Shown: positions 31,236 to 63,081 of the stretch, in pieces
How positions within the stretch are numbered: position 1 is the first letter of the stretch
Layout of the letters: the number at the start of each line of letters is the position of its first letter
Source: Squalus acanthias
Lineage: Eukaryota
Direction: 5' to 3'
Assembly: GCA_030390025.1 (NCBI GenBank)
Contig: CM059431.1
Coordinates: forward strand, 98,024,001 to 98,088,000
Length of the DNA stretch: 64,000 nucleotides
Made by a program: the position numbers and the translations under genes
The notes under the pieces: generated by a model
Database searches by the model: none
What the model saw: only the letters and a program-made list of their open reading frames with translations
Told to the model about the DNA's origin: nothing

Positions 31236-31891
31236 GGAGGAAAAATTCAGTCACGACTATTTTGGGCGCGAACATTTAATTAGCGCCGGTGACCGCGAAA
31301 TTGAGTGTTAGCGCCCCAAGAGGGAAGTGGAGACTAAATCAAGCTTCACTTCTTCTTATGGAGATAATGTCGGAGAGCGGGGCGGAGACTTCAGAAGGGA
31401 AGGGCCATCGCCGCAAGCTCTGCAATACCTGGACCACCAGGACAGCCGCGATCCCGCGCGATCAACCCAGCACTCAAGCAGAAAGCCGGGCTGGTCGATC
31501 GCGGGCAGGAACCCGCCGAAAAACCTGGAACGAGAAAGGTAAGTTTTTTTTCCACTTACCTCAGCTGCCTCGTCTTTAATCTTCGCTCCCGACGCGGCCT
31601 GCCGCCCGGAGCGCGCCTCCTGCAGCTGTCGGTGTATTCGACCGGTGCTGCTGTAGGGGGCGGAAGTGAATTCCGGGTCCGGGGCGCTACTGGGGCGATG
31701 AGCATGGCGATGACGTCACGATCTCCGACTGAAGGAGATCGCGGCACAACACCGTAGCGCCGCCGCAAAACTCCCGCCAAATATGGCGGGAGTCGATGTC
31801 AGCGCCGCGCCCGGTCGCCAAGCCATTTGCACCTTGTGAGCGCCCCCTGGGGGCGCTAACGGGAGGCGCAAAGGCACCCAATTTCACCCGC
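31236..31891 (+). mobile_element. Non-autonomous Harbinger MITE inserted in the L2 tail
   Basis: Ends GGAGGAAAAATT / AATTTCACCCGC. Flanks GAT / TAT split the L2 tail GGCGC-TAT-ATAAAT. Right subterminus GGCGCTAACGGGAGGCGCAA is shared with the autonomous elements. Confidence 0.82.
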
Positions 31892-34992: not shown

Positions 34993-35947
34993 CATGCTTG
35001 GGATTTCAAACAAGGTATTTTTTATACAGTAAGTGGTATATTTCACTGGAAGAGTCAGACCAGCACTTAATGAAGTTACCGATCTATATTGACTATCTCC
35101 TTAAATCACATCTCTGATGGAATGGATGATCTGTTCAGAACTCTTCCTCACAAAGCTCCACTCCCACCATATTCCCACATTCAACTGAGTGACCTGCAGC
35201 TGGGGTCAATGGAAGTCCCATTCACATACAGACAAGCAGGTCCCTGCAGAGTAATTAAACTGCAAGGATGTTTAGGCTACACTGAAATCCATAGTGCCAC
35301 ACCTCAAAGGCCCAGTTACCCCTAGCCCCAGATCTGGTGCATAATACAGAAATAGCAGAGCTGGGAATCACCCGTACATTAATCGAGGACTCTCCATCAT
35401 CGAGTCCTGGACTCTCCGGAGAGTAACACTGACGTAGAAGCTCATCGCAACATTCCCTCTTTCTCACGAGTTTTGGACAGTCACCCACTGAAGATCACAT
35501 CTTCTGTTCCTGTTCTCAGCTAAAGACATTCACTTCCAAACAGTTGCTTTTTTTATATACACGATTGATAGACTTAATATAAACATATCGGGGGAAAAAT
35601 TAGGTCGCGCCCCGTTTGGGGCGCAAATATCGTCTGGACGCAAATATTAGCGTCTGGCGCTAATTATCGCCACTGACTGGAAACTTCACTTTTACCGCTC
35701 TGGGAGGTGAGTGGAGCGCTAAATCAGGCGCTGCACACCTGTCTTAAGACGCAAAGGCCGAGCAGTGAGGCGCTAACTCAGCGCGCGAGCGCAGCGCAGG
35801 TGCTGCCAGTTAGCGAGGGAACACAGACACACTGGCGCCGGCCAGTTCTTAAAGCGGGGGGGCCAACTTGCTCCCCAACCACACCCTGCTCATTGCAACC
35901 TTGAATCTCGGCCTGGAGAGACCTGTGAATCCATTTTGCTGCCAAGG

Positions 35948-37821
35948 ATGGAGAGGGTGAGAGAACGAGCTCAGCGCTTCACCAAGCGGGCCTTGGATGC
36001 TCTGGTTGGCGCGGTGGAGCGCAGAAGATCTATACTCTTCCCTGAGAGTGGCAGGAGGCCTTTGCCACGCGAGTACAGAAGAGTGTGGAGGGAGGTGGCT
36101 CAGAGCGTCTCCTCCAGGAGCATGGTGCCCAGGACCCACGTTCAATGCCGCAAAAAGTTCAACGACCTCACTCGGGTCGTCAGGGTGAGTGGCTTTTTCT
36201 CAATACCTCTCCATCCCTCCATCTCAACCTCACTCTATGGCCAGAGGGTCTTAAAACCCCAATGCACAACACTCATCCAACACCTATGGCCCTTTCATGA
36301 AACACACACACGCATTCCACACTTTGCATACAGTAAGGGCTATTCACCTATGGGAGGCACATCAGGCAAGACCATGGCTGCATACAGTAAGGGCTATTCA
36401 CCTATGGGAGGCACATCAGGCAAGACCATGGCTGCATACAGTAAGGGCTATTCACCTATGGGAGGCACATCAGGCAAGACCATGGCTGTATATTTACTCA
36501 GATGCTGTCCTTTTACTTGCAGGCCAAGCTGGCGCATAATAGGAGACAGCAGCAACGGACAGGTGGAGGGCGGCCTCAGCTGCAACCCCTCAGCGATCTT
36601 GAGGAGCGCGTCCACAGGATTGTGGCAAGCCGGGTGATCGGTCCCGTCGCCACTGGAGACGCCGACCCCGTTCTGGACAGCAATGGTAAGGTCATCACCT
36701 TTTTGTCCTCTGTCCTTCCACTTGTCCCTCACAACACCAGCCTTTGACACTTTCAATCCAACTTGCTAACTCGCTGCACTTATTCCTCCCTTACTGCCAC
36801 CCTGTCCTCACGCTAAAGCCACTCTTGTACCTCCCTGCTTTCAGATGGTGATTCACCAGCTGAGGAGACGGGCCCTGAAGCTGCCAGTGGGAGTGAAGCT
36901 GCAGCCGAGGAGGAAGAGGAAGCTGGAGCATCAGTGCCACCCTCTCCCGAGGAAGCCCATGCCCACACTGGGAACACGCCTTCCCTGGAGGGGAGCAGGG
37001 GGGAAGGGTCTGATGAGGGTGAAGCTCCAGGACCCAGCGGGCTGCAGCAACGCCATGGGGGTAGGGAAGAACGGGGGCCTTCTCCCCAGAGGGAGAGTAT
37101 GCCAGCGACTCCTACTGCAATGGACGCAGAGGAGGAGCGGCTGATCGCAGAAATGAACACCCAGGCGGTGGGCATCCACACTGAGCTCATAGGTGCAGTG
37201 GGAAGGGTGCCCGAATGCATTGAGTCACTGGCAAGGAGTGTGGAGCACTTCGCTGTAGCACAGGCGGATGCCACACTAAAGCTTAGTGCTGCAATTCAGT
37301 CACTGACTGCCGTGATCCCATCTCTGACTGCTCTCATGCAGACTCAGATTGAGGCCACGTGAGCACTGACTGCTGCCAACCTCGATGTTTCGTTCACATG
37401 TCCCCGGGGCTCTCACCGCGCCGCAGCAGGCCAGCAATCTGTGCTCCAGCAGATTGCTCCGGATGCTGAAGTGCTGCCCCTTGGGAGTGCCAGTGTGTCG
37501 GTCGAGCAGGGAGTTGCTGTCCTCTCTCACGATGACAGCATTCCTGCTGACAACATTGTCACTTCTCCACTGCACTTGCCACTGCCTGTAGGACAGACTG
37601 CTGCCGCCCATGCAGAGTTGGTGCAGTCTGCAGCCGGGCCCTCCAGGCCCAGAAGTGGTCGAGGCCATCCTTCAGGGGCATCTGCAGTGTCAGGGTCTGA
37701 CAATCAGCAGCCTTCCACCAGCCTTGTTGCAGCCACTGAGGTCCCATTACGGAGGAGCAGTAGGGTTAGAAGGGGGGAAGTGCGCAAGGGAAGAAGATCA
37801 CCCTCGAAGGGCAAAAAGTAG
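35948..37821 (+). pseudogene. Harbinger Myb/SANT-like DNA-binding gene, 3 exons (35948-36184, 36523-36685, 36845-37821), premature TGA at 37360-37362
   Basis: Trihelix motif RFTKRALDALV...VWREVAQSVS...RTHVQCRKKFNDL, continuing after a GT-AG intron as AKLAHNRRQQQRTGGG. Splice phases 0 and 1 are compatible. The TGA aligns with CGA in copy 2 and the frame continues to TAG at 37821. Confidence 0.85.
36326..36487 (+). repeat. 54-bp perfect tandem repeat x3 in intron 1
   Basis: GCATACAGTAAGGGCTATTCACCTATGGGAGGCACATCAGGCAAGACCATGGCT, three identical units. Confidence 0.97.
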
Positions 37822-38133
37822 GAGGTGTGACAAAATGCTGGTCATTTTTTTATTAAAGGCCGAGGTTCGTGGTCCAACTTTTGTCTAGTGTTTTGGACAT
37901 TATCTCCAGGTTGTGAGAACCAGTTATGTTAATGACTGTTTTTTTGTGTTTATTTCTATGAGTTTGTCATGAGGAAATGACACACACAGAGTTTGTAAAA
38001 TAAATAAGTTTTTGTATTCAAAATATACATGTTTGGTGTTTGGAATCATTGGTGCCTTGGCCGGCTTAGGGGTTGCGTGCTGGGTTCATTGATGTTGTTA
38101 GCAATGGCAGAAGCCATTTCCACAGCAGGGGCC

Positions 38134-39294
38134 CTAGAAGCGGCTTGCTATCAGCCGTTGATGGACGGCCCTTGCAGTTTCACCATTGTGGGCTGCCCTC
38201 CCGCCTTGGTGCTGCTGATGATCATCCTCCTCGTCCTCTTCCTCCTCTTCCTCCTCCTCCTCTGGTGGTGCGCCAAGGCCTGGTGGCATTGGCTGGGTCC
38301 TGACGATTGCCATGTTATGCAACATGCAGCACACAACTACGAAGTTGGATACTCGCTCAGGCGAGTACTGCAGGGCTCCTCCAGAATGGTCGAGACAGCG
38401 GAACCGTTGCTTCAGCACGCCGATTGTGCGCTCAATGATGTTCCTGGTAGCTTGATGGCTCTCGTTGTACCGCAGCTCAGCAGGGGTGTTGGGCGTACGG
38501 AGCGGTGTCATCAGCCAGGTGCTCAATGGATACCCCTTGTCCCCGAGAAGCCAACCAACTGGCTGATGCGGTGCCTCGAAAAGTTCTGCCACAGTAGTCT
38601 GGCGCAGGATGAAAGCATCGTGGCAGCTGCCAGGATAGTGGGCATTGACAGCGAGTATCAGCTGTCTGTGGTCACAGACCAACTGAACATTCAAGGAATG
38701 GAACCCCTTTCTGTTCCGGAATTCCTCGGCATTCTCATGTGGAGCACGCAAAGCCACATGCATGCAGTCAATGGCGCCCTGCACCATGGGGAAGCCCGCT
38801 ATCCTCGCAAAGCCCAGAGCACGGTCACGCTGCTTGTCTAGGGTCATGGGGAAAGAGATGAACTCTCGTCTCCTTTTAAAGAGGGCATTTGTGACCTGCC
38901 GGATGCAGCAATGCACCGCGAACTGGGAGATATTGGCGAGGTCCCCAGCAGCAGCTTGAAATGAGCCAGTAGCATAGAAGTTGAGAGCCACTGTGACCTT
39001 CACTGCCACCGACAGAGACGTCCTGGACCTCAGTTGAGGCTGCAGATCTGGCTGCAGCAGGTGGCAGAGCTCAGTGACCACCTCCTTGCTGAATCGCAGC
39101 CTTCGCAAACACAGCTCCTCAGACATATGAATGTAGGAGAGCTGTTCATGATATACCCTGGGAGGGTAAGCTCTCCTGTACAGACGCCTGTTGGCCCTCC
39201 TCCGTCTGGCCATCATTGCCACTCTCTCTCTGCGTCTCTGTGTCCTCCGATTCAGCTGGAGCAGGACGACGCCCCCATTCAGTGCAGCCCCCAT
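38134..39294 (-). CDS. Harbinger DDE transposase (HARBI1-related family), 386 aa
   Basis: Motifs GAIDCMHV, NRKGFHSLNVQLVCD, PGSCHD, LLGDKGY, IERTIGVLKQRFRCL and acidic C-terminal tract. Start Met chosen by alignment with copy 2. Confidence 0.95.
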   Translation of the reverse strand: MGAALNGGVVLLQLNRRTQRRRERVAMMARRRRANRRLYRRAYPPRVYHEQLSYIHMSEELCLRRLRFSKEVVTELCHLLQPDLQPQLRSRTSLSVAVKVTVALNFYATGSFQAAAGDLANISQFAVHCCIRQVTNALFKRRREFISFPMTLDKQRDRALGFARIAGFPMVQGAIDCMHVALRAPHENAEEFRNRKGFHSLNVQLVCDHRQLILAVNAHYPGSCHDAFILRQTTVAELFEAPHQPVGWLLGDKGYPLSTWLMTPLRTPNTPAELRYNESHQATRNIIERTIGVLKQRFRCLDHSGGALQYSPERVSNFVVVCCMLHNMAIVRTQPMPPGLGAPPEEEEEEEEEDEEDDHQQHQGGRAAHNGETARAVHQRLIASRF

Positions 39295-39479
39295 AGTCTC
39301 TTTGCAAGCAAAGTTATGAAGGACAGCAACCAAAGTACCAGCGAAGTTAGGATCAGTAGGCAAAACTACCTCACAAAGCGTTGACTCAATGCAGAAGTCT
39401 CTCTTTCTCTCTCTCCGAATCTCTCTCTCTCTCTCAGAACGAGTGGTGCAAAAATGTCAACCACAGAAAAAGACAGGAA

Positions 39480-39640
39480 GAGGCCCCCTTTAAATAGCGC
39501 CCCCCCCCCAGCCCCACAGCGATTGATAGCGTTCCAGTCTTCCGGTCGTTGGATGCGCCAGGCGGTAAGGCAGGGGGCGCCACTCAATTTCCGCTCCGGG
39601 GCGCCACAAGGGCGTTGCACCATGGAATGACGTCACAATC
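39480..39640 (-). promoter_or_regulatory. Putative transposase promoter (TATA-like CTATTTAAA on minus ~39489-39497; palindromic CRE TGACGTCA 39628-39635)
   Basis: Both motifs lie 200-340 bp upstream of the transposase ATG and are conserved in copy 2 (CRE at 59358-59365). Function is inferred only. Confidence 0.4.
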
Positions 39641-39926
39641 TGCGCGCGCAGGTGGTCGCGGCGGTAAAGTTTAGCGCCGCCGCACAATGTCTAGTTAATT
39701 TCCCGAGCGGCGCAAACATCGCTGCGCCCGGGCGCTAGCGGCTTTGCGCCCCATTAGCGCCCTCTTAAGGCGCTAACGGGAGGCCCAACCAACTGAATTT
39801 TTCCCCCATCGTGTGCTCCAGCCCACAGCTCTCATCTCCCTTCAGGGTGTTCCTCCCTCCCCAGCCTGAAAATAGCTTAAAATTAGTTTTAGATTAAATA
39901 ATTCGAGTTATTCGAACTCGCTCCCC

Positions 39927-53100: not shown

Positions 53101-55639
53101 GAGACTAAGGGAGAGAGGAGACTAAGAGAGAGAGGAGACTTAGGGAGAGAGGAGACTAAGGGAGAGAGGTGACTAAGAGAGAGAGGAGACTAAGGGGGAG
53201 AGGAGACTAAGAGAGAGAGGAGACTTAGGGAGAGAGGAGACTAAGGGAGAGAGGAGACTAAGAGAGAGAGGAGACTAAGAGAGAGAGGAGACTAAGAGAG
53301 AGAGGTGACAAAGAGAGAGAGGAGACTTAGGGAGAGAGGAGACTAAGAGAGAGAGGTGACAAAGAGAGAGAGGAGACTTAGGGAGAGAGGAGACTGAGAG
53401 AGAGAGGACAGTAAGAGAGAGAGGTGACTAAGAGAGAGAGGAGATTAAGAGAGAGAGTAGACTAAGAGAGAGAGTAGACTAAGAGAGAGAGGAGACTAAG
53501 AGAGAGAGGAGACTAAGAGAGAGAGGAGACTGAGAGAGAGAGGAGACTGAGAGAGAGAGGACAGTAAGAGAGAGAGGAGACGAAGGTGAGAGAGGAGACT
53601 AAGAGAGAGAGGGGACTGAGAGAGAGAGGAGACTGAGGGAGAGAGGAGACTGAGGGAGAGAGGACAGTAAGAGAGAGAGGAGACTAAGGTGAGAGAGGAG
53701 ACTAAGGGAGAGAGGAGACTAAGAGAGAGAGGAGACTGAGGGAGAGAGGTGACTAAGGGACAGAGGTGACTAAGAGAGAGAGGAGACTTAGGGAGAGAGG
53801 GGACTAAGAGAGAGAGGAGACTTAGGGAGAGAGGGGACTAAGAGAGAGAGGAGACTGAGAGAGAGAGGAGACTGAGAGAGAGAGGAGACTAAGAGAGACA
53901 GGAGACAAGAGAGAGAGGAGACTGAGAGAGAGAGGAGACTAAGAGAGAGAGGAGACTTAGGGAGAGAGGAGACTAAGAGAGAGAGGAGAATATGGGAGAG
54001 AGGAGACTAGGGTGAGAGGAGACTGAGAGAGAGAGGAGACTAAGGGAGAGAGGAGACTAAAGGAGAGAGGAGACTAAGGGAGAGAGGAGACTGAGAGAGA
54101 GAGGAGACTAAGGGAGAGAGGAGACTAGGGTGAGAGGAGATTAAGAGAGAGAGGAGACTTAGGGAGAGAGGAGACTAAGAGAGAGAGGTGACTAAGAGAG
54201 AGAGGAGACTAAGGGAGAGTGGAGACTAAGAGAGAGAGGTGACTAAGGGAGAGAGGAGACTAAGGGAGAGAGGAGATTAAGAGAGAGAGGAGACTAAGTG
54301 AGAGAGGAGACTAAGGGTGAGAGGAGACTAAGAGAGAGAGGGGACTAAGGGAGAGAGGAGACTAAGAGAGAGAGGAGACTGAGGGAGAGAGGTGACTAAG
54401 GGAGAGAGGTGACTAAGAGAGAGAGGAGACTTAGGGAGAGAGGGGACTAAGAGAGAGAGGAGACTTAGGGAGAGAGGGGACTAAGAGAGAGAGGAGACTG
54501 AGAGAGAGAGGAGACTGAGAGAGAGAGGAGACTAAGAGAGACAGGAGACTAAGAGAGAGAGGAGACTGAGAGAGAGAGGAGACTAAGAGAGAGAGGAGAC
54601 TTAGGGAGAGAGGAGACTAAGAGAGAGAGGAGAATATGGGAGAGAGGAGACTAGGGTGAGAGGAGACTGAGAGAGAGAGGAGACTAAGGGAGAGAGGAGA
54701 CTAAAGGAGAGAGGAGACTAAGGGAGAGAGGAGACTGAGAGAGAGAGGAGACTAAGGGAGAGAGGAGACTAGGGTGAGAGGAGATTAAGAGAGAGAGGAG
54801 ACTTAGGGAGAGAGGAGACTAAGAGAGAGAGGTGACTAAGAGAGAGAGGAGACTAAGGGAGAGTGGAGACTAAGAGAGAGAGGTGACTAAGGGAGAGAGG
54901 AGACTAAGGGAGAGAGGAGATTAAGAGAGAGAGGAGACTAAGTGAGAGAGGAGACTAAGGGTGAGAGGAGACTAAGAGAGAGAGGTGACTAAGGGAGAGA
55001 GGAGACTAAGGGAGAGAGGAGATTAAGAGAGAGAGGAGACTAAGGGAGAGAGGAGACTAAGGGTGAGAGGAGACTAAGAGAGAGAGGTGACTAAGGGAGA
55101 GAGGAGACTAAGGGAGAGAGGAGATTAAGAGAGAGAGGAGACTAAGGGTGAGAGGAGAGTGAGAGAGAGAGGAGACTAAGGGAGAGAGGAGACTAAGGAT
55201 GAGAGGAGACTAAGAGAGAGAGGTGACTAAGGCAGAGAGGAGACTAAGGGAGAGAGGAGACTATGGGAGAGAGGAGACTGAGGGGTAGAAATTAGGTCGC
55301 GCCCCATGTGGGGCGCAAATATCGTCCGGACGCAAATATTAGCGCCTGGCGCTAATTATCGGCACTGACAGGAAACTTCACTTTTACCGCCCCGGGAGGT
55401 GAGTGGAGCGCTCTAGTAGGCGCTGCACACCTCTCTTAAGGCGCAAAGGCCAAGGAGTGAGGCGCTAACTCAGCGCACGAGCGCAGCGCAGCTGCTGCCA
55501 GTTAGCGAGGGAACACAGACACAATGGCACCGGACACTTCTTAAAGCGGGGGGGGGCCACTTGCTCCCCAGCCACACCCTGCTCATTGCAGCCTTGAATC
55601 TCAGCCTGGAGAGACCTGTAATCCATTTTGCTGCCTAGC

Positions 55640-57570
55640 ATGGAGAGGGTGAGAGAACGCGCTCATCGCTTCACCGAGCGGGCCTTGGATGCTCTGGTTG
55701 ACGCAGTGGAGCGCAGACGATGCATGCTGTTCCCGGAGAGTGGCAGGAGGCCTTTGCCACGCGAGTTCAGAAGAGTGTGGAGGGAGGTGGCTCAGAGCGT
55801 CTCCTCCAGGAGCATGGTGCCCAGGACCCATGTTCAATGCCGCAAAAAGTTCAACGACCTCACTCGGGTCGTCAGGGTGAGTGGCTTTTTCTCAATACCT
55901 CTCCATCCCTCCATCTCAACCTCACTCTATGGCCAGAGGGTCTTAAAACCCCAATGCACAACACTCATCCAACACCTATGGCCCTTTCATCAAACACACA
56001 CACACATTCCACACTTTGCATACAGTAAGGGCTATTCACCTATGGGAGGCACATCAGGCAAGACCATGGCTGCATACAGTAAGGGCTATTCACCTATGGG
56101 AGGCACATCAGGCAAGACCATGGCTGCATACAGTAAGGGCTATTCACCTATGGGAGGCACATCAGGCAAGACCATGGCTGCATACAGTAAGGGCTATTCA
56201 CCTATGGGAGGCACATCAGGCAAGACCATGGCTGTATATTTACTCAGATGCTGTCCTTTTTCTTGCAGGCTAAGCTGGCTCATAATCGGAGACAGCAGCA
56301 ACGGACGGGTGGAGGGCGGCTTCAGCTGCAACCCCTCAGCGATCTGGAGGAGCGCGTCCACAGGATTGTGGCAAGCCGGGTGATCGGTCCCGTCGCCACT
56401 GGAGACGCCGACCCCGTTGTGGACAGCAATGGTAAGGTCATCACCTTTTTGTCCTCTGTCCTTCCACTTGTCCCTCACAATACCAGCCTTTGACACTTTC
56501 AATCCAACTTGCTAACTCGCTGCACTTATTCCTCCCTTACTGCCACCCTGTCCTCACGCTAAAGCCACTCTTGTACCTCCCTGCTTTCAGATGGTGATTC
56601 ACCAGCTGAGGAGACGGGCCCTGAAGCTGCCACTGGGAGTGATGCTGCAGCTGAGGAGGAAGAGGAAGCCGGAGCATCAGTGCCACCCTCTCCCGAGGAA
56701 GCCCATGCCCACACTGGGAACACGCCTTCCCCGGAGGGGAGCAGGGGGGAAGGGGCTGATGATGGTGAAGCTCCAGGACCCAGCGGGCTGCAGCAACGCC
56801 ATGGGGGGGGTAGGGAAGAATGGGGGCCTTCTCCCCAGAGGGAGAGTATGCCAGACACTCCTACTGCAATTGACACAGAGGAGGAGCGGCTGATTGCAGA
56901 AATGAACACCCAGGCGGTGGGCATGCACACTGAGCTCATGGGTGCAGTGGGAAGGGTGCCCGATTGCATTGAGTCACTGGCAAGGAGTGTGGAGCACTTC
57001 GCTGTAGCACAGGCGGATGCCACACTAACGCTTAGTGCTGCAATTCAGTCAATGGCTGCCGTGATCCCACCTCTGACTGCTCTCATACAGACTCAGATGG
57101 AGGCCACGCGAGCACAGACTGCTGCCAACCTCGATGGTTCGTGCACATGTCCCCGGGGCTGTCACCGCGCCGCAGCAGGCCAGCAATCTGTTCTCCGGCA
57201 AATTGCTCCGGATGCTGAAGTGCTGCCCCGTGGGAGTGCCAGTGTGTCGGGCGAGCAGGGAGTTGCTGGCCTCTCTCACGATGACAGCATTCCTGCTGCC
57301 AACACTGTCACTTCTCCACTGCACTTGCCACCGCCTGTAGGACAGACTGCTGCCGCCCATGCAGAGTTGGTGCAGTCTGCAGCCGGGCCCTCCAGGCCCA
57401 GAAGTGGTCGAGGCCGTCCTTCAGGGGCATCTGCAGTGTCAGGGTCTGACGAGCAGCAGCCTTCCACCAGCCTTGCTGCAGCCACTGAGGTCCCATTACG
57501 GAGGAGCAGTAGGGTTAGAAGGGGGGAAGTGCGCAAGGGAAGGAGATCACCCTCGAAGGGCAAAAAGTAG
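55640..57570 (+). CDS. Harbinger Myb/SANT-like protein, 3 exons (55640-55876, 56269-56431, 56591-57570), predicted 459 aa
   Basis: Donors AGG|GTGAGT and ATG|GTAAGG, acceptors TTGCAG| and TTTCAG|. 237+163+980=1380 nt with no internal stop. N-terminal trihelix motif, acidic low-complexity middle, helical segment and basic C-terminus (RRSSRVRRGEVRKGRRSPSKGKK). Confidence 0.88.
56018..56233 (+). repeat. 54-bp perfect tandem repeat x4 in intron 1
   Basis: Four identical units, identical to the three units in copy 1. Confidence 0.97.
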
Positions 57571-57864
57571 GAGATGTGCCAAAATGCTGGTCATTTTTTT
57601 ATTAAAGGCCGAGGTTCATGGTCCAACTTTTGTTTAGTGTTTTGGACATTATCTCCAGGTTGTGAGAACCAGTTATGTTATTGACTGTTTTTTTGTGTTT
57701 ATTTCTATGAGTTTGTCATGAGGAATTGACACACACAGAGTTTGTAAAATAAATAAGTTTCTGTATTCAAAATATACATGGCTGGTGGTTGGAATTATTG
57801 GTGCCTTGGCCGGCTTAGGGGTTGCGTGCTGGGTTGATTAGTGTTTGTAGCAATGGCAGGGGCC

Positions 57865-59025
57865 CTAGAAGCGGCTTGCTATTAGTCGTTGACGGACGAC
57901 CCTTGCAGTTTGACCATTGTGGGCCGCCCTCCTGCCTTGGTGCTGCTGATGATCATCGTCCTCGTCCTCTTCCTCCTCTTCCTCCTCCTCCTCTGGTGGT
58001 GCTACAAGGCCTGGTGGCATTGGCTGGGTCCTGAGGATTGCCATGTTGTGCAACATGCAGCACACGACTACGAAGTTCGAAACTTGCTCAGGCGAGTACT
58101 GCAGGGCTCCTCCGGAATGGTCCAGACAGCGGAACCGTTGTTTCAGCACGCCGATTGTGCGCTCAATAATGTTCCTGGTTGCTTGATGGCTTTCATTGTA
58201 CCGCAGCTCAGCAGGGGTGTTTGGCGTACGGAGCGGTGTCATCAGCCAGGTGCTCAATGCGTACCCCTTGTCCCCCAGAAGCCAACCAACTGGCTGATGC
58301 GGTGCCTCGAAAACTTCTGCCACAGTAGTCTGGCGCAGGATGAAAGCATCGTGGCAGCTGCCCGGATAGTGGGCATTGACAGCGAGTATCACCTGTCTGT
58401 GGTCACAGACCAACTGCACATTCAAGGAATGGAACCCCTTTCTGTTCCTGAATTCCTCTGCATTCTCTCGCGGAGCACGCAAAGCCACATGCGTGCAGTC
58501 AATGGCGCCCTGCACCATGGGGAAGCCCGCTACCCTCGCAAAGCCCAGAGCACGGTCACGCTGCTTGTCTGGGGTCATAGGGAAAGAGATGAAGTCTCGT
58601 CTCCTTCTGAAGAGGGCATTGGTGACCTGCCGGATGCAGCGATGCACCGCAAACTGGGAGATATTGGCGAGGTCCCCAACAGCAGCTTGGAATGAGCCAG
58701 TGGCGTAGAAGTTCAAAGCCACTGTGACCTTCACTGCCACCGACAGAGACATCCTGGACCTCAGCTGAGGCTGCAGATCTGGCTGCAGCAGGTGGCAGAG
58801 CTCAGTGACCACCTCCTTGCTGAATCGCAGCCTTCGCAAACACAGCTCCTCGGACATATGGATGTAGGAGAGCTGTTCACGATATACCCTGGGAGGGTAA
58901 GCTCTCCTGTACATGCGCCTGATGGCCCTCCTCCGTCTGGCCATCATTGCCACTCTCTGTCTGCGTCTCAGTATCCTCCGATTCAGCTGGAGCAGGACGA
59001 CGCCCCCAATCATTGCAGCCCCCAT
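57865..59025 (-). CDS. Harbinger DDE transposase (HARBI1-related family), 386 aa, intact
   Basis: GAIDCTHV, NRKGFHSLNVQLVCD, PGSCHD, LLGDKGY, IERTIGVLKQRFRCL; uninterrupted ORF. Confidence 0.96.
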   Translation of the reverse strand: MGAAMIGGVVLLQLNRRILRRRQRVAMMARRRRAIRRMYRRAYPPRVYREQLSYIHMSEELCLRRLRFSKEVVTELCHLLQPDLQPQLRSRMSLSVAVKVTVALNFYATGSFQAAVGDLANISQFAVHRCIRQVTNALFRRRRDFISFPMTPDKQRDRALGFARVAGFPMVQGAIDCTHVALRAPRENAEEFRNRKGFHSLNVQLVCDHRQVILAVNAHYPGSCHDAFILRQTTVAEVFEAPHQPVGWLLGDKGYALSTWLMTPLRTPNTPAELRYNESHQATRNIIERTIGVLKQRFRCLDHSGGALQYSPEQVSNFVVVCCMLHNMAILRTQPMPPGLVAPPEEEEEEEEEDEDDDHQQHQGRRAAHNGQTARVVRQRLIASRF

Positions 59026-61644
59026 ATTCTCTTTGCCAGAAAAGTAATGAGGTACAGCAACTAAAGTAGCACCAAAGTAAGGATGAACTAGGCAAAACTA
59101 CCTCACAAAGCGTTGAGTCAATGTAGAAGTCTCTCTCTCTCTCTCTCCGAATCTCTCTCTCTCTCTCAGAACGAGTGGTGCATAAATGTCGACCACAGAA
59201 AAAGACAGGAAGAGGCCCCCTTTAAATAGCGCCCCCCCCAGCCCCACACCGATTGATAACGTTCCAGTCTTCCGGTCGTTGGAAGCGCCAGGCGGTAAGG
59301 CAGGGGGCGCCACTCAATTTCCGCTCCGGGGCGCCCCAAGGGCGTTGCACCATGGAATGACGTCACAATCTGCGCGCGCAGGTGGTCGCAGCGGTAAGTT
59401 TTAGCGCCGCCGCACAATCTCAAGTTAAGTTCTCGAGCGGCGCAAACAGCGCTGCGCCCGGGCGTTAGCGGCTTAACGCCCCATTAGCGCCCTCTTAAGG
59501 CGCTAACGGGAGGCGCAACCAAGTGAATTTTTACCCCTAAGGGTGAGAGGAGACTAAGAGAGAGAGGAGACTAAGGGAGAGAGGAGATTAAGAGAGAGAG
59601 GAGACTAAGAGAGAGAGGAGACTTAGGGAGAGAGGAGACTAAGGGAGAGAGTAGACTTAGGGAGAGAGGAGACTAAGGGAGAGAGGAGACTTAGGGAGAG
59701 AGGAGACTAAGAGAGAGAGGGGACTAAGGGAGAGAGGAGACTAAGAGAGAGAGGGGACTAAGGGAGAGAGGAGACCAAGAGAGAGAGGAGACTGAGGGAG
59801 AGAGGAGACTAAGAGAGAGAGGGGACTAAGGGAGAGAGGAGACCAAGAGAGAGAGGAGACTGAGGGAGAGAGGAGACTAAGGGAGAGAGGTGACTAAGAG
59901 AGAGAGGAGACTAAGGGAGAGAGGAGACTAAGAGAGAGAGGAGACTTAGGGAGAGAGGAGACTAAGGGAGAGAGGAGACTGAGGGAGAAAGGACACTAAG
60001 AGAGAGAGGTGACTAAGAGAGAGAGGAGACTAAGAGAGAGAGGAGACTTAGGGAGAGAGGAGACTAAGAGAGAGAGGTGACTAAGAGAGAGAGGAGACTT
60101 ATGGAGAGAGGAGACTAAGAGAGAGAGAGGTGACTAAGAGAGAGAGTAGACTAAGAGAGAGAGGGGACTGAGAGAGAGAGGAGACTAAGAGAGAGAGGAA
60201 ACTGAGAGAGAGAGGAGACTGAGAGAGAGAGGAGACTAAGAGAGACAGGAGACTAAGAGAGAGAGGAGACTGAGAGAGAGAGGAGACTAAGGGAGAGAGG
60301 AGACTCGGGTGAGAGGAGACTGAGAGAGAGAGGAGTCTAAGGGAGAGAGGAGACTGAGTGAGAGAGGAGAATAAGGGAGAGAGGAGAATAAGGGAGAGAG
60401 GAGACTAAGGGTGAGAGGAGACTAAGAGAGAGAGGAGACTGAGAGAGAGAGGAGACTAAGAGAGAGAGGAGACTAAGGGAGAGAGGAGACTAAAGGAGAG
60501 AGGAGACTAAGGGAGAGAGGAGACTAAGGGAGAGAGGAGACTAGGGTGAGAGGAGATTAAGAGAGAGAGCAGACTAAGGGAGAGAGGAGACTAAGGGTGA
60601 GAGGAGACTAAGAGAGAGAGGTGACTAAGGGAGAGAGGAGACTAAGAGAGAGTGGAGATTAAGAGAGAGAGGAGACTAAGGGAGAGAGGAGACTTTGGGA
60701 GAGAGGAGACTAAGAGAGAGAGTAGACTAAGAGAGAGAGGAGACTAAGAGAGAGAGGAGACTAAGGGAGAGAGGAGATTAAGCGAGAGAGGAGACTAAGA
60801 GAGAGAGGAGACTAAGGGAGAGAGGAGACTAAGTGTGAGAGGAGACTAAGAGAGAGAGGAGACTAAGAGAGAGAGGTGACTAAGGGATAGAGGATTCCAA
60901 GGGAGAGAGGAGACAGAGAGAGAGGAGACTAAGGGAGAGAGGAGACTAAGGGTTAGAGGAGACTAAGAGAGAGAGGAGACTAAGAGAGAGATGTGACTAA
61001 GAGAGAGAGGAGACTAAGGGAGAGAGGAGACTTAGGGAGAGACTGAAAGACTAGAATAAAAAGCGAGCAGTTTCAGGACAATGCAGTGAGACGGAGTGGA
61101 ATTGTGAATTGTGAATTGTGCTTCATCTCCTGGTTTTGGCTCTTGGGCTGATTTATTACAGGAATGCTGATAAACTGCAGCCTCAAACCAAATAAAGAGC
61201 GCGATCAAAGGGAAATCTGGTACATTCCACAGAGTTGCAGAAATGCCCAGTCCCTTGCGCAGCATCGCGATTTACATATTTGGGAACATCCAGTGCATTC
61301 CAGACAGGTTTCAGGACTTTGCTCCGTGTTCCTTTATAAGGCCGAGAGATCGGGGATTGTGTGGTTGGAATGGACCCACATTCTCTCAGCAGAATGTTGC
61401 CCAAATGATACGTCTTTAATGTTTTACCCGAAGTCCCCCAGCAATTGGCTGCAGGAATCTGCCTCTCACCATTCCACAGCTCTGTGAATTTCAGAGCTCT
61501 GGCATCAGCTGTGTGCACAGATCGCTCCTCTTCATTCAAAGTTCTTTCATTGAAGTTATCTGATAACTCACATTGTGAATCCTTCAGCCGTGTCACTCAC
61601 GTTGCTTCATTCAAATTATTGGAGAATTCATATTTTCTTCGCAT

Positions 61645-62014: not shown

Positions 62015-63081
62015 AGAACATAAGAATTAGGAGCAGGAGTCGGAGTCCGCCCCTCCAGCCTGCTCCGCCCCGCCAGCCTGCTCCGCCCCTCCTGCCTGCT
62101 CCGCCCCTCCAGCCTGCTCCGCCATTCAATAAGATCATGGCTGATCTTTGACCTCAACTCCACTTTCCTGCACTATCCCCATATCCCTCGATTCCCTTAA
62201 TATCCAAAAATCTATCGCTCTCTGTCTTGAATATACTCAACGACTGAGCACCCACAGCCCTCTGGGGCAGAGAATTCCAAAGATTCACCACCCTCTGAGT
62301 GAAGAAATTTCTCCTCATCTCAGTCTTAAATGGCCGACCCCTTATCCTGAGACTGTGATCCCTGGTTCTAGACTCCCCAGACAGGGGAAAACATCCTCCC
62401 TGCATCTACCCTGTCAAGCCCTGTAAGAATATTATGGGGGAAAATTCGGTCGCGCCCCATTTGGTCGGTAACTTTTTCGGAGTGCTAAAAGTAGATTCAA
62501 CGGTAGCGCCCCATGCAGGAGGCGGGGCTACTGGAAGCGCTCCCCCTCCTTCCTGGGGCGCTACCAGTGAATATCGCGGCACTATGTGCAACAGCGCCAC
62601 GTGCGTCAGGACGTAGCGCCGCGGTACTGCAGGCCTCCCTCCCCTGACTCCACTCAAGAGGAGTGCCGGGCTGACCGAGCGCGGCCGGCACCCCGCGTGA
62701 GGAAGTGGAAGGGGGCAGGTGCTGGCAAGCGGCACAAAAAAAAAGGCCGCCCGACACCTGCCCTTTGACTTGCGCCGCTGTGGCCGCAAAAACGCCCCCT
62801 GACCCTGTCGGACATGGTGTCCGGCGGTAGGTCAGGGGGCGCAAGCGACATTTACATCCGGTGCGCGAGCGGGACGCTGCGCACGGCGATGACATCATCG
62901 CCGGAGGCGCAGCGCCACGGGGCGATACCGGCTACCACCACCGCTAACCTCCCACTGAATTTTGCAGGAGGCGTTAGTGCCGCCGCGCCCAGGCGCTAGG
63001 GGCTTTGCGCCCTGTTAGTGCCCCCCGGGGGTGCTAACGGGAGGTGCAAGAAAAGCCAATTTTTCCCCCTCTATGTTTCAA
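62015..63081 (-). mobile_element. CR1 3' fragment (62015-62435, resumes 63070-63081) split by a MITE
   Basis: Minus-strand RTRDHSLRIRGRPFKTEMRRNFFTQRVVNLWNSLPQ; AGAACATAAGAA tail; short internal expansion of CCTGCTCCGCCCCTCCAG at ~62047-62122. Confidence 0.88.
62436..63069 (+). mobile_element. Non-autonomous Harbinger MITE inserted in CR1
   Basis: Ends GGGGGAAAATTCGGTCGCGCCCC / AATTTTTCCCCC match the autonomous copy 1 ends. Flanks TAT / TCT split CR1 AGAATAT-TAT-ATGTTTCAA. Confidence 0.88.

Follow-up and report, generated by a model that had tools for sequence, protein, structure and literature searches.

A tandem array of perfect 54-bp units, carried in the first intron of a transposon-encoded Myb/SANT gene, is probably a passenger minisatellite (VNTR) lodged in a young and abundant elasmobranch PIF/Harbinger family whose copies would have recently shared their Myb block. 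This reading is supported because a microhomology bounds the array, because an absence of change in its units has a probability of 0.09-0.14 at the local background and an open frame through the intron one of 0.17, because neither folding nor Rfam gives a signal and because the differences found in the intron are all non-synonymous in the retained frame (3/3). Against it stand the missing intron-1 joint beside a detected intron-2 joint, the two donor-like motifs present in each unit, the dS of exon 2, the contigs of one public organism (organism H) and the implied presence of at least two units in two organisms.

Two Harbinger elements and their Myb/SANT gene

The window, that is the whole stretch of 64,000 nucleotides that was analysed, is repeat-rich eukaryotic DNA holding two sister elements, e1 and e2, of which e1 sits 20 kb upstream of e2. 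Their main features are as follows.

55282..59537: e2, a PIF/Harbinger element of 4256 bp inside a 17-bp satellite, with TGA on its left flank and TAA on its right
55282..55293, plus strand: left TIR of e2, 12 bp, with one mismatch to the right TIR
59526..59537, minus strand: right TIR of e2
35590..39807: e1, the sister element of 4218 bp, with perfect 12-bp TIRs, an ATC duplication and a stop at codon 306 of Myb exon 3
57865..59025, minus strand: DDE transposase of 386 aa (PF13359), intact in e1 and e2
55640..55876, plus strand: Myb/SANT exon 1 of e2, 79 codons, covering most of PF13873
55877..56268, plus strand: intron 1 of e2, 392 nt, GT-AG, phase 0, placed from the homolog junction, with no spliced joint in the RNA contigs
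56269..56431, plus strand: Myb exon 2 of e2, coding in the homolog model for the rest of helix 3 and a further helix
56432..56590, plus strand: intron 2 of e2, 159 nt, with a spliced joint in two RNA-like runs
56591..57570, plus strand: Myb exon 3 of e2, the complete spliced product being 459 aa
36185-36522, plus strand: intron 1 of e1, 338 nt

With a DDE transposase, a Myb/SANT ORF, short TIRs and a 3-bp duplication, e1 and e2 belong to an elasmobranch-type PIF/Harbinger (PHIS) family. The transposase matches PF13359 (E=2.5e-39) and finds its best matches among elasmobranch proteins named 'putative nuclease HARBI1', the top one being 66% identical. The second ORF carries the Myb/SANT domain PF13873 (E=1.2e-8, residues 7-79), and in each element the transposase and the three-exon Myb/SANT gene are convergent; no third, VANC-like ORF was detected among the open reading frames examined. 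The 3-bp target duplication reads ATC/ATC in e1 and TGA/TAA in e2 (one mismatch), ATC not being among the duplications named for PHIS elements in the available part of PMC4482050, and the flanks of e1 (35583-35589 and 39808-39814) and of e2 (55275-55281 and 59538-59544) both fit A-N-N-Y-[3 bp]-R-N-N-T. A subterminal motif, TTAGCGC/GCGCTAA, occurs three times at each element end and is absent from the interior, array included; it could be the binding site of the element's own Myb protein.

At least half of the sampled element words were present in 18 of the 24 listed public runs, under nine organism labels, and the Harbinger family is therefore young and widespread. A search for the transposase locus in metagenome contigs, collections in which shark DNA is not expected, confirmed none of 622 candidates. 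Compared with the zebrafish Harbinger3_DR/PIF/Harbinger elements, as described in the accessible portions of PMC9392472 and PMC4482050, the elements are alike in their DDE transposase and Myb/SANT gene, their short TIRs starting with G, their length of about 4.2 kb and their 3-bp duplication, but differ in their intronic tandem array, in the ATC duplication of e1 and in their nearest transposases, which are elasmobranch HARBI1-like (for background, see also the accessible part of bioRxiv 10.1101/2021.04.08.439009).

Regarding their setting, the 17-bp satellite is purine-rich, amounts to about 15 kb between 41845 and 61042, and is interrupted not only by e2 but also by other short inserts close to 43800 and 46700. 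At about 31236-31890 and 62437-63069 lie two short non-coding elements, rich in CpG and with ends of Harbinger type; they show 68-75% similarity to e2 at its right end and are probably MITEs.

The junction between exons 1 and 2 is backed by homologs, most of the 24 Myb homologs listed going on with exon-2-like sequence at this point and none of these 24 having an intron-encoded peptide after its exon-1 equivalent. Among Myb-like homologs, the proteins P0122 and P0123 have three and two tandem Myb modules, respectively.

The 54-bp array and its local background

The array is present in intron 1 of both elements.

56017..56232, plus strand: 54-bp minisatellite in intron 1 of e2, four identical units that lack CpG, then an imperfect partial unit of 6 nt (56233-56238)
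36325..36486, plus strand: the same 54-bp minisatellite in intron 1 of e1, three identical units

The original prediction had described seven identical units, three in one element and four in the other, and these counts were confirmed at 36325-36486 and 56017-56232, with all seven units (7/7) free of mismatches; it had found the same array in e2 with coordinates one base off (56018-56233), and its distance of about 35 bp to the exon-2 acceptor measures 36 nt. A tandem-repeat call gives a period of 54 with 3.1 and 4.1 copies, arranged head-to-tail and with no spacer between units, and a 30-mer of the unit occurs seven times in the window compared with zero times in 100 shuffles. Outside the two arrays, the unit is absent from the window, and exact-match scans returned zero hits in metagenome contigs (30-mer) and in viral contigs (19-mer), where shark DNA is not expected. 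The unit numbers of three and four come from the only two arrays observed whole.

The array is bounded by a 6-nt imperfect direct repeat, TGCATA/TGTATA (one mismatch), and such ends fit the slippage origin of a minisatellite. Indeed, the consulted part of the review PMC6947457 presents a model of minisatellite origin seeded by flanking repeats of 5-10 bp and reports that many minisatellites reside within mobile elements. The array is similar to these TE-embedded minisatellites in being short, in having short direct-repeat ends, in lying in a mobile element and in varying in unit number between copies; those treated in the same portion of the review (PMC6947457) reside in retroelements and MITEs, whereas the present one lies in the intron of an autonomous-type Harbinger, a word that is absent from the review. 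In the mainly open-access literature covered, no description of this family, or of a tandem array within the intron of a Harbinger-encoded Myb gene, came up, and the word 'tandem' is absent from the main text of PMC9179366 and PMC13668399.

For a passenger minisatellite, the history would begin with a 54-bp intron segment with 6-nt imperfect direct repeat ends, duplicated in an ancestral element by slippage or unequal exchange. Units would later have been gained or lost, presumably by the same mechanisms, giving the three and four units that the two copies display. A different origin, namely the capture of a fragment from a host satellite or an insertion target, is in our view very unlikely: the unit does contain one A-N-N-Y-nnn-R-N-N-T site, but about 0.8 such sites per unit are expected by chance, the microhomology accounts for an origin in place, and the unit is found nowhere else in the window. 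Furthermore, comparison of the unit with the TIRs, the two insertion sites, the 17-bp satellite and the rest of the element gave no similarity beyond that of shuffles.

The identity of the units had initially been set against a divergence of about 5% between the elements. This figure holds for the elements as wholes (213/4197 aligned sites, 5.1%) but is the wrong baseline for judging the array. The Myb introns (55877-56590) are much more alike between e1 and e2 than are the termini or the transposase, with 3 differences in 174 sites of non-repeat intron 1 and 1 in 159 of intron 2 (together 4/333). When non-CpG differences are counted, the introns (3/327) do not depart from the synonymous sites of exon 3 (3/221, p=0.69), whereas both lie far below the synonymous sites of the transposase (20/237; p=1e-5 for the introns and p=0.0004 for exon 3); Myb introns and exon-3 synonymous sites thus differ by about 1%, compared with 8% for transposase synonymous sites. 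At this local background, the probability of no change in the arrays is 0.09-0.14. With so few differences in the neighboring intron DNA (4/333), the identity of the array is unremarkable and within chance: its units look perfect since they are CpG-free and lie within a stretch differing by about 1% between the elements.

Two explanations of the quiet introns were tried and rejected. CpG content alone does not account for them, non-CpG differences being 3/327 in the introns versus 71/1019 in the other non-coding parts. An overlapping ORF was likewise discarded: introns 1 and 2 each have stops in five of their six frames, and exon 3 is not spanned by any long alternative frame. The simplest reading would be that e1 and e2 are mosaic elements with a recently shared Myb block. 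However, exon 2, flanked on both sides by a quiet intron, carries 7 differences over its 163 nt, with a dS of 0.12, which counts against a mosaic. Constraint on both introns as a whole, in which nothing singles out the array, would also fit the contigs of organism H, where the contigs that contain introns show 2 differences from e2 in 814 sites and those of exon 3 show 12 in 866 (p=0.013).

It is in this context that a DNA-level cis element has to be weighed, in which the array, or the whole quiet intron, would be bound either by the element-encoded Myb protein or by some host factor and act in enhancement or anti-silencing, by analogy with VANDAL transposons of Arabidopsis. In the available text of PMC5735166, the targets of VANC are tandem repeats lying in the introns of a DNA transposon; their units are gained and lost, and their arrays are homogeneous internally and change in concert between copies. 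The introns studied here are, for their part, unusually invariant. Nevertheless, VANDAL belongs to another superfamily and its repeats are bound by VANC (PMC5735166, same portion), whereas e1 and e2 have no detected VANC-like gene, their array has no CpG to demethylate, and the subterminal motif, whose role as a Myb site is putative, is missing from it. We regard such a cis element as quite improbable.

Concerning exon 3 (56591-57570 versus 36845-37821), its differences are mostly amino-acid changes: non-CpG differences amount to 23/667 at non-synonymous and 3/221 at synonymous sites, an excess with p=0.16 taken alone and p=0.008 against synonymous and intron sites together. Several departures from e2 in exon 3 are likewise frequent among public runs, and the pattern may reflect diversifying selection on the helper protein.

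Splicing of intron 1

Four of the 24 listed public runs (X1, X15, X17 and X19), all in the form of contigs, were compared over 55282-57600. None of the listed runs is recorded as RNA, and X17 (organism A) and X19 (organism B), which come from two organisms and two studies, were treated as RNA-like solely for their intron-2 joint; this joint links 56431 to 56591 with GT..AG ends and is absent from X1 and X15. No intron-1 joint was found among the joints listed, which are 15 of a total of 16, in contigs that are unstranded and drop rare forms, and the intron-1 donor is bridged unspliced in both X17 (record 18, 55589-56046) and X19 (record 28, 55834-55990). Taken together, this is a weak hint that intron 1 is poorly spliced or retained, weak because the contigs are unstranded and lose rare forms and because intron 2 is also covered unspliced in X17 and X19, as expected from read-through of many copies.

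Record 18 of X17 and records 11 and 12 of X15, which enter the array from one side or the other, end after about 30 bases of it. This is where a 31-mer graph fails on a repeat, which suggests an array of at least two units in organisms A and H; 31-mer contigs cannot give the unit number, and contig depths were used neither to count units nor to rank parts. Two further observations were made in these runs. One contig of X19 departs from exon 2 exactly at the intron-2 donor (56431) and continues in unrelated sequence, pointing to the splicing of a Myb exon onto an exon of the host. In X15, contig depth sums to 72-209 across the 5' portion of intron 1 (55828-55983) versus 1-35 in all other bins, and this piece may be shared with another, commoner repeat in organism H.

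Scored against the splice-site consensus, the unit holds two donor-like motifs.

56022..56030, plus strand: GT donor-like motif ACA/GTAAGG of unit 1, present in every unit; its use would shift the frame, and no use was seen
56055..56063, plus strand: GC donor-like motif CAG/GCAAGA, 7/9 to consensus, present in every unit; its use would shift the frame, and no use was seen

Both motifs occur together in a unit in 0.14% of shuffles, a post hoc test chosen after the motifs had been noticed, and an AG/TAA overlapping the GT motif could serve as an acceptor with an immediate stop. The predicted products are 247 aa upon retention, 129 or 140 aa with the cryptic donors and 79 aa with a 32-nt cassette running from the internal AG to the GC motif; in all the non-canonical outcomes checked, the protein is cut short downstream of its Myb domain.

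These features bear on the best rival to a passenger, which extends the copy-number switch first proposed: the units would be decoy 5' splice sites near the branch point and the acceptor, and more units would mean less splicing of exon 1 to exon 2. More truncated Myb-only or degraded RNA would then be predicted, which would limit transposition in the way that retention of P-element IVS3 does. Such a brake on splicing has in its favor the intron-2 joint of X17 and X19 with no intron-1 joint listed and the intron-1 donor bridged in both, the two motifs of each unit, the truncation common to the outcomes checked, and the precedents of P-element pseudo-5' sites and of the ABCA7 intronic VNTR, in the portions of PMC7776569 and PMC5954066 consulted. 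We nevertheless hold it to be unlikely. Indeed, contigs attest only that a sequence is present and miss rare forms, the pattern could be mimicked by read-through or antisense transcripts of many copies, with unspliced intron 2 present in the same runs, and the donor-motif test is post hoc. Moreover, no joint using a cryptic donor site was found among the joints listed, and the true donor and acceptor of intron 1 look near consensus. A masking of this donor by a hairpin was rejected, as 19% and 36% of shuffles pair the donor equally well, as for intron 2.

In Drosophila P-element IVS3, as reported in the accessible part of PMC7776569, splicing is repressed through pseudo-5' sites, and the form made on retention acts as a repressor. 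The likeness is that retention would truncate a DNA-binding protein and that pseudo-5' splice sites lie near the intron; in contrast, the P-element silencer is exonic, single and proven (PMC7776569, same portion), whereas the candidate motifs considered here are intronic and repeated and the gene encodes a helper, not the transposase. Similarly, in the intronic VNTRs of ABCA7 (PMC5954066) and TERT (VNTR6-1, PMC11830802), to the extent that the available texts describe them, the length of a VNTR could tune splicing, but these lie in host genes and the TERT array has tens of units, as opposed to three or four units in a transposon. P-element, ABCA7 and VANC thus illustrate ways in which the array could work, and membership of none of these systems is claimed. 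A bolder version is that the variable decoy-donor array constitutes a heritable dial, more units blocking intron-1 splicing and yielding a Myb-domain-only repressor, and copies tuning themselves by slippage; we judge it distinctly unlikely.

Retained frame, repeat RNA and significance

Retention of intron 1 would give the following reading frame.

55640..56383, plus strand: retained-intron ORF of e2, 247 aa, with a stop 48 nt before the last exon junction

The original prediction that a retained intron 1 keeps the exon-1 frame open was borne out, with an 18-residue repeat peptide following the Myb domain, except for the ORF lengths: counted from the first ATG, these come to 229 and 247 aa and not 233 and 251. 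As the intron measures 392 nt in e2 and 338 nt in e1, neither of which is a multiple of three, retention puts exon 2 out of frame and leads to a stop at 56381-56383. The exon-1 frame stays open through the intron in 16.7% of 5000 shuffled introns, a single unit has no stop in any one given frame in 49% of cases, and a period that is a multiple of three is a one-in-three chance, arrays of period 15, 18, 33, 39 and 51 sharing the window. The open retained frame and the period are hence within chance.

A short Myb isoform had been put forward; a functional one with a selected repeat peptide is unsupported, since the three differences between e1 and e2 in intron 1 all change amino acids in the retained frame (3/3) and no real homolog of the peptide came up. 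A HMMER scan of 1.84 billion proteins returned 68 matches, of which nearly all fall on the Myb domain; the repeat region drew few matches, all weak (best E 6e-8), and the one inspected is an unrelated repeat protein. A word-seeded protein search confirmed 0 of 6421 candidates for the 247-aa ORF and 1 of 158 for exon 1 alone. In the structural model of the retained product, residues 11-80 are confident and form a three-helix core, the repeat tail being mostly at pLDDT <50. In the model of the closest full-length homolog, P0125, helix 3 extends 13 residues beyond the exon-1 boundary and is followed by another confident helix, so that both would be lost on intron-1 retention; judging from these models, the retained product would keep the three-helix core and lose part of helix 3 together with the next helix. 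The frame is open in both copies, residues 11-80 are predicted to fold, and the stop 48 nt before the last junction is just inside the limit of 50-55 nt within which a stop escapes NMD. Against this, an open frame has a probability of 0.17, the intron differences are non-synonymous, the tail is poorly modeled, retention would remove the end of helix 3 and the helix after it, and homologs of the repeat region are as weak as described. We consider this protein highly improbable.

The repeat RNA suggested at first fares no better. Identical tandem units in an intron and a loose hammerhead-like motif seen by eye on the minus strand could point to a structured, catalytic or guide-type RNA, but a comparison with Rfam allowing E values up to 10 gave no match over the array, and the unit folds no better than shuffles on either strand (z-scores of -0.98 to +1.68 for eight array-containing segments). 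The hammerhead-like and other RNA readings were ruled out on these grounds. The features of a CRISPR- or TIGR-like guide array were not found either, the units abutting without spacers and having no match or complementarity to the insertion sites or the TIRs. An RNA of this kind is extremely unlikely.

Returning to the passenger minisatellite, its array would simply be spliced out with the intron, without a job of its own, and its open frame and period would be fortuitous. Should the array instead prove to be a splicing brake, a vertebrate DNA transposon would be endowed with a fast-mutating control of its own helper protein, which would offer a simple system of 0-4 units for the dose effect of decoy donors and be relevant to adapting Harbinger elements as tools; if it were a dial, a P-element-like autoregulation would have been made from a minisatellite in a vertebrate Harbinger. 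As a passenger, it would be one more minisatellite spread by transposons, useful only as a subfamily marker in a little-studied elasmobranch Harbinger family.
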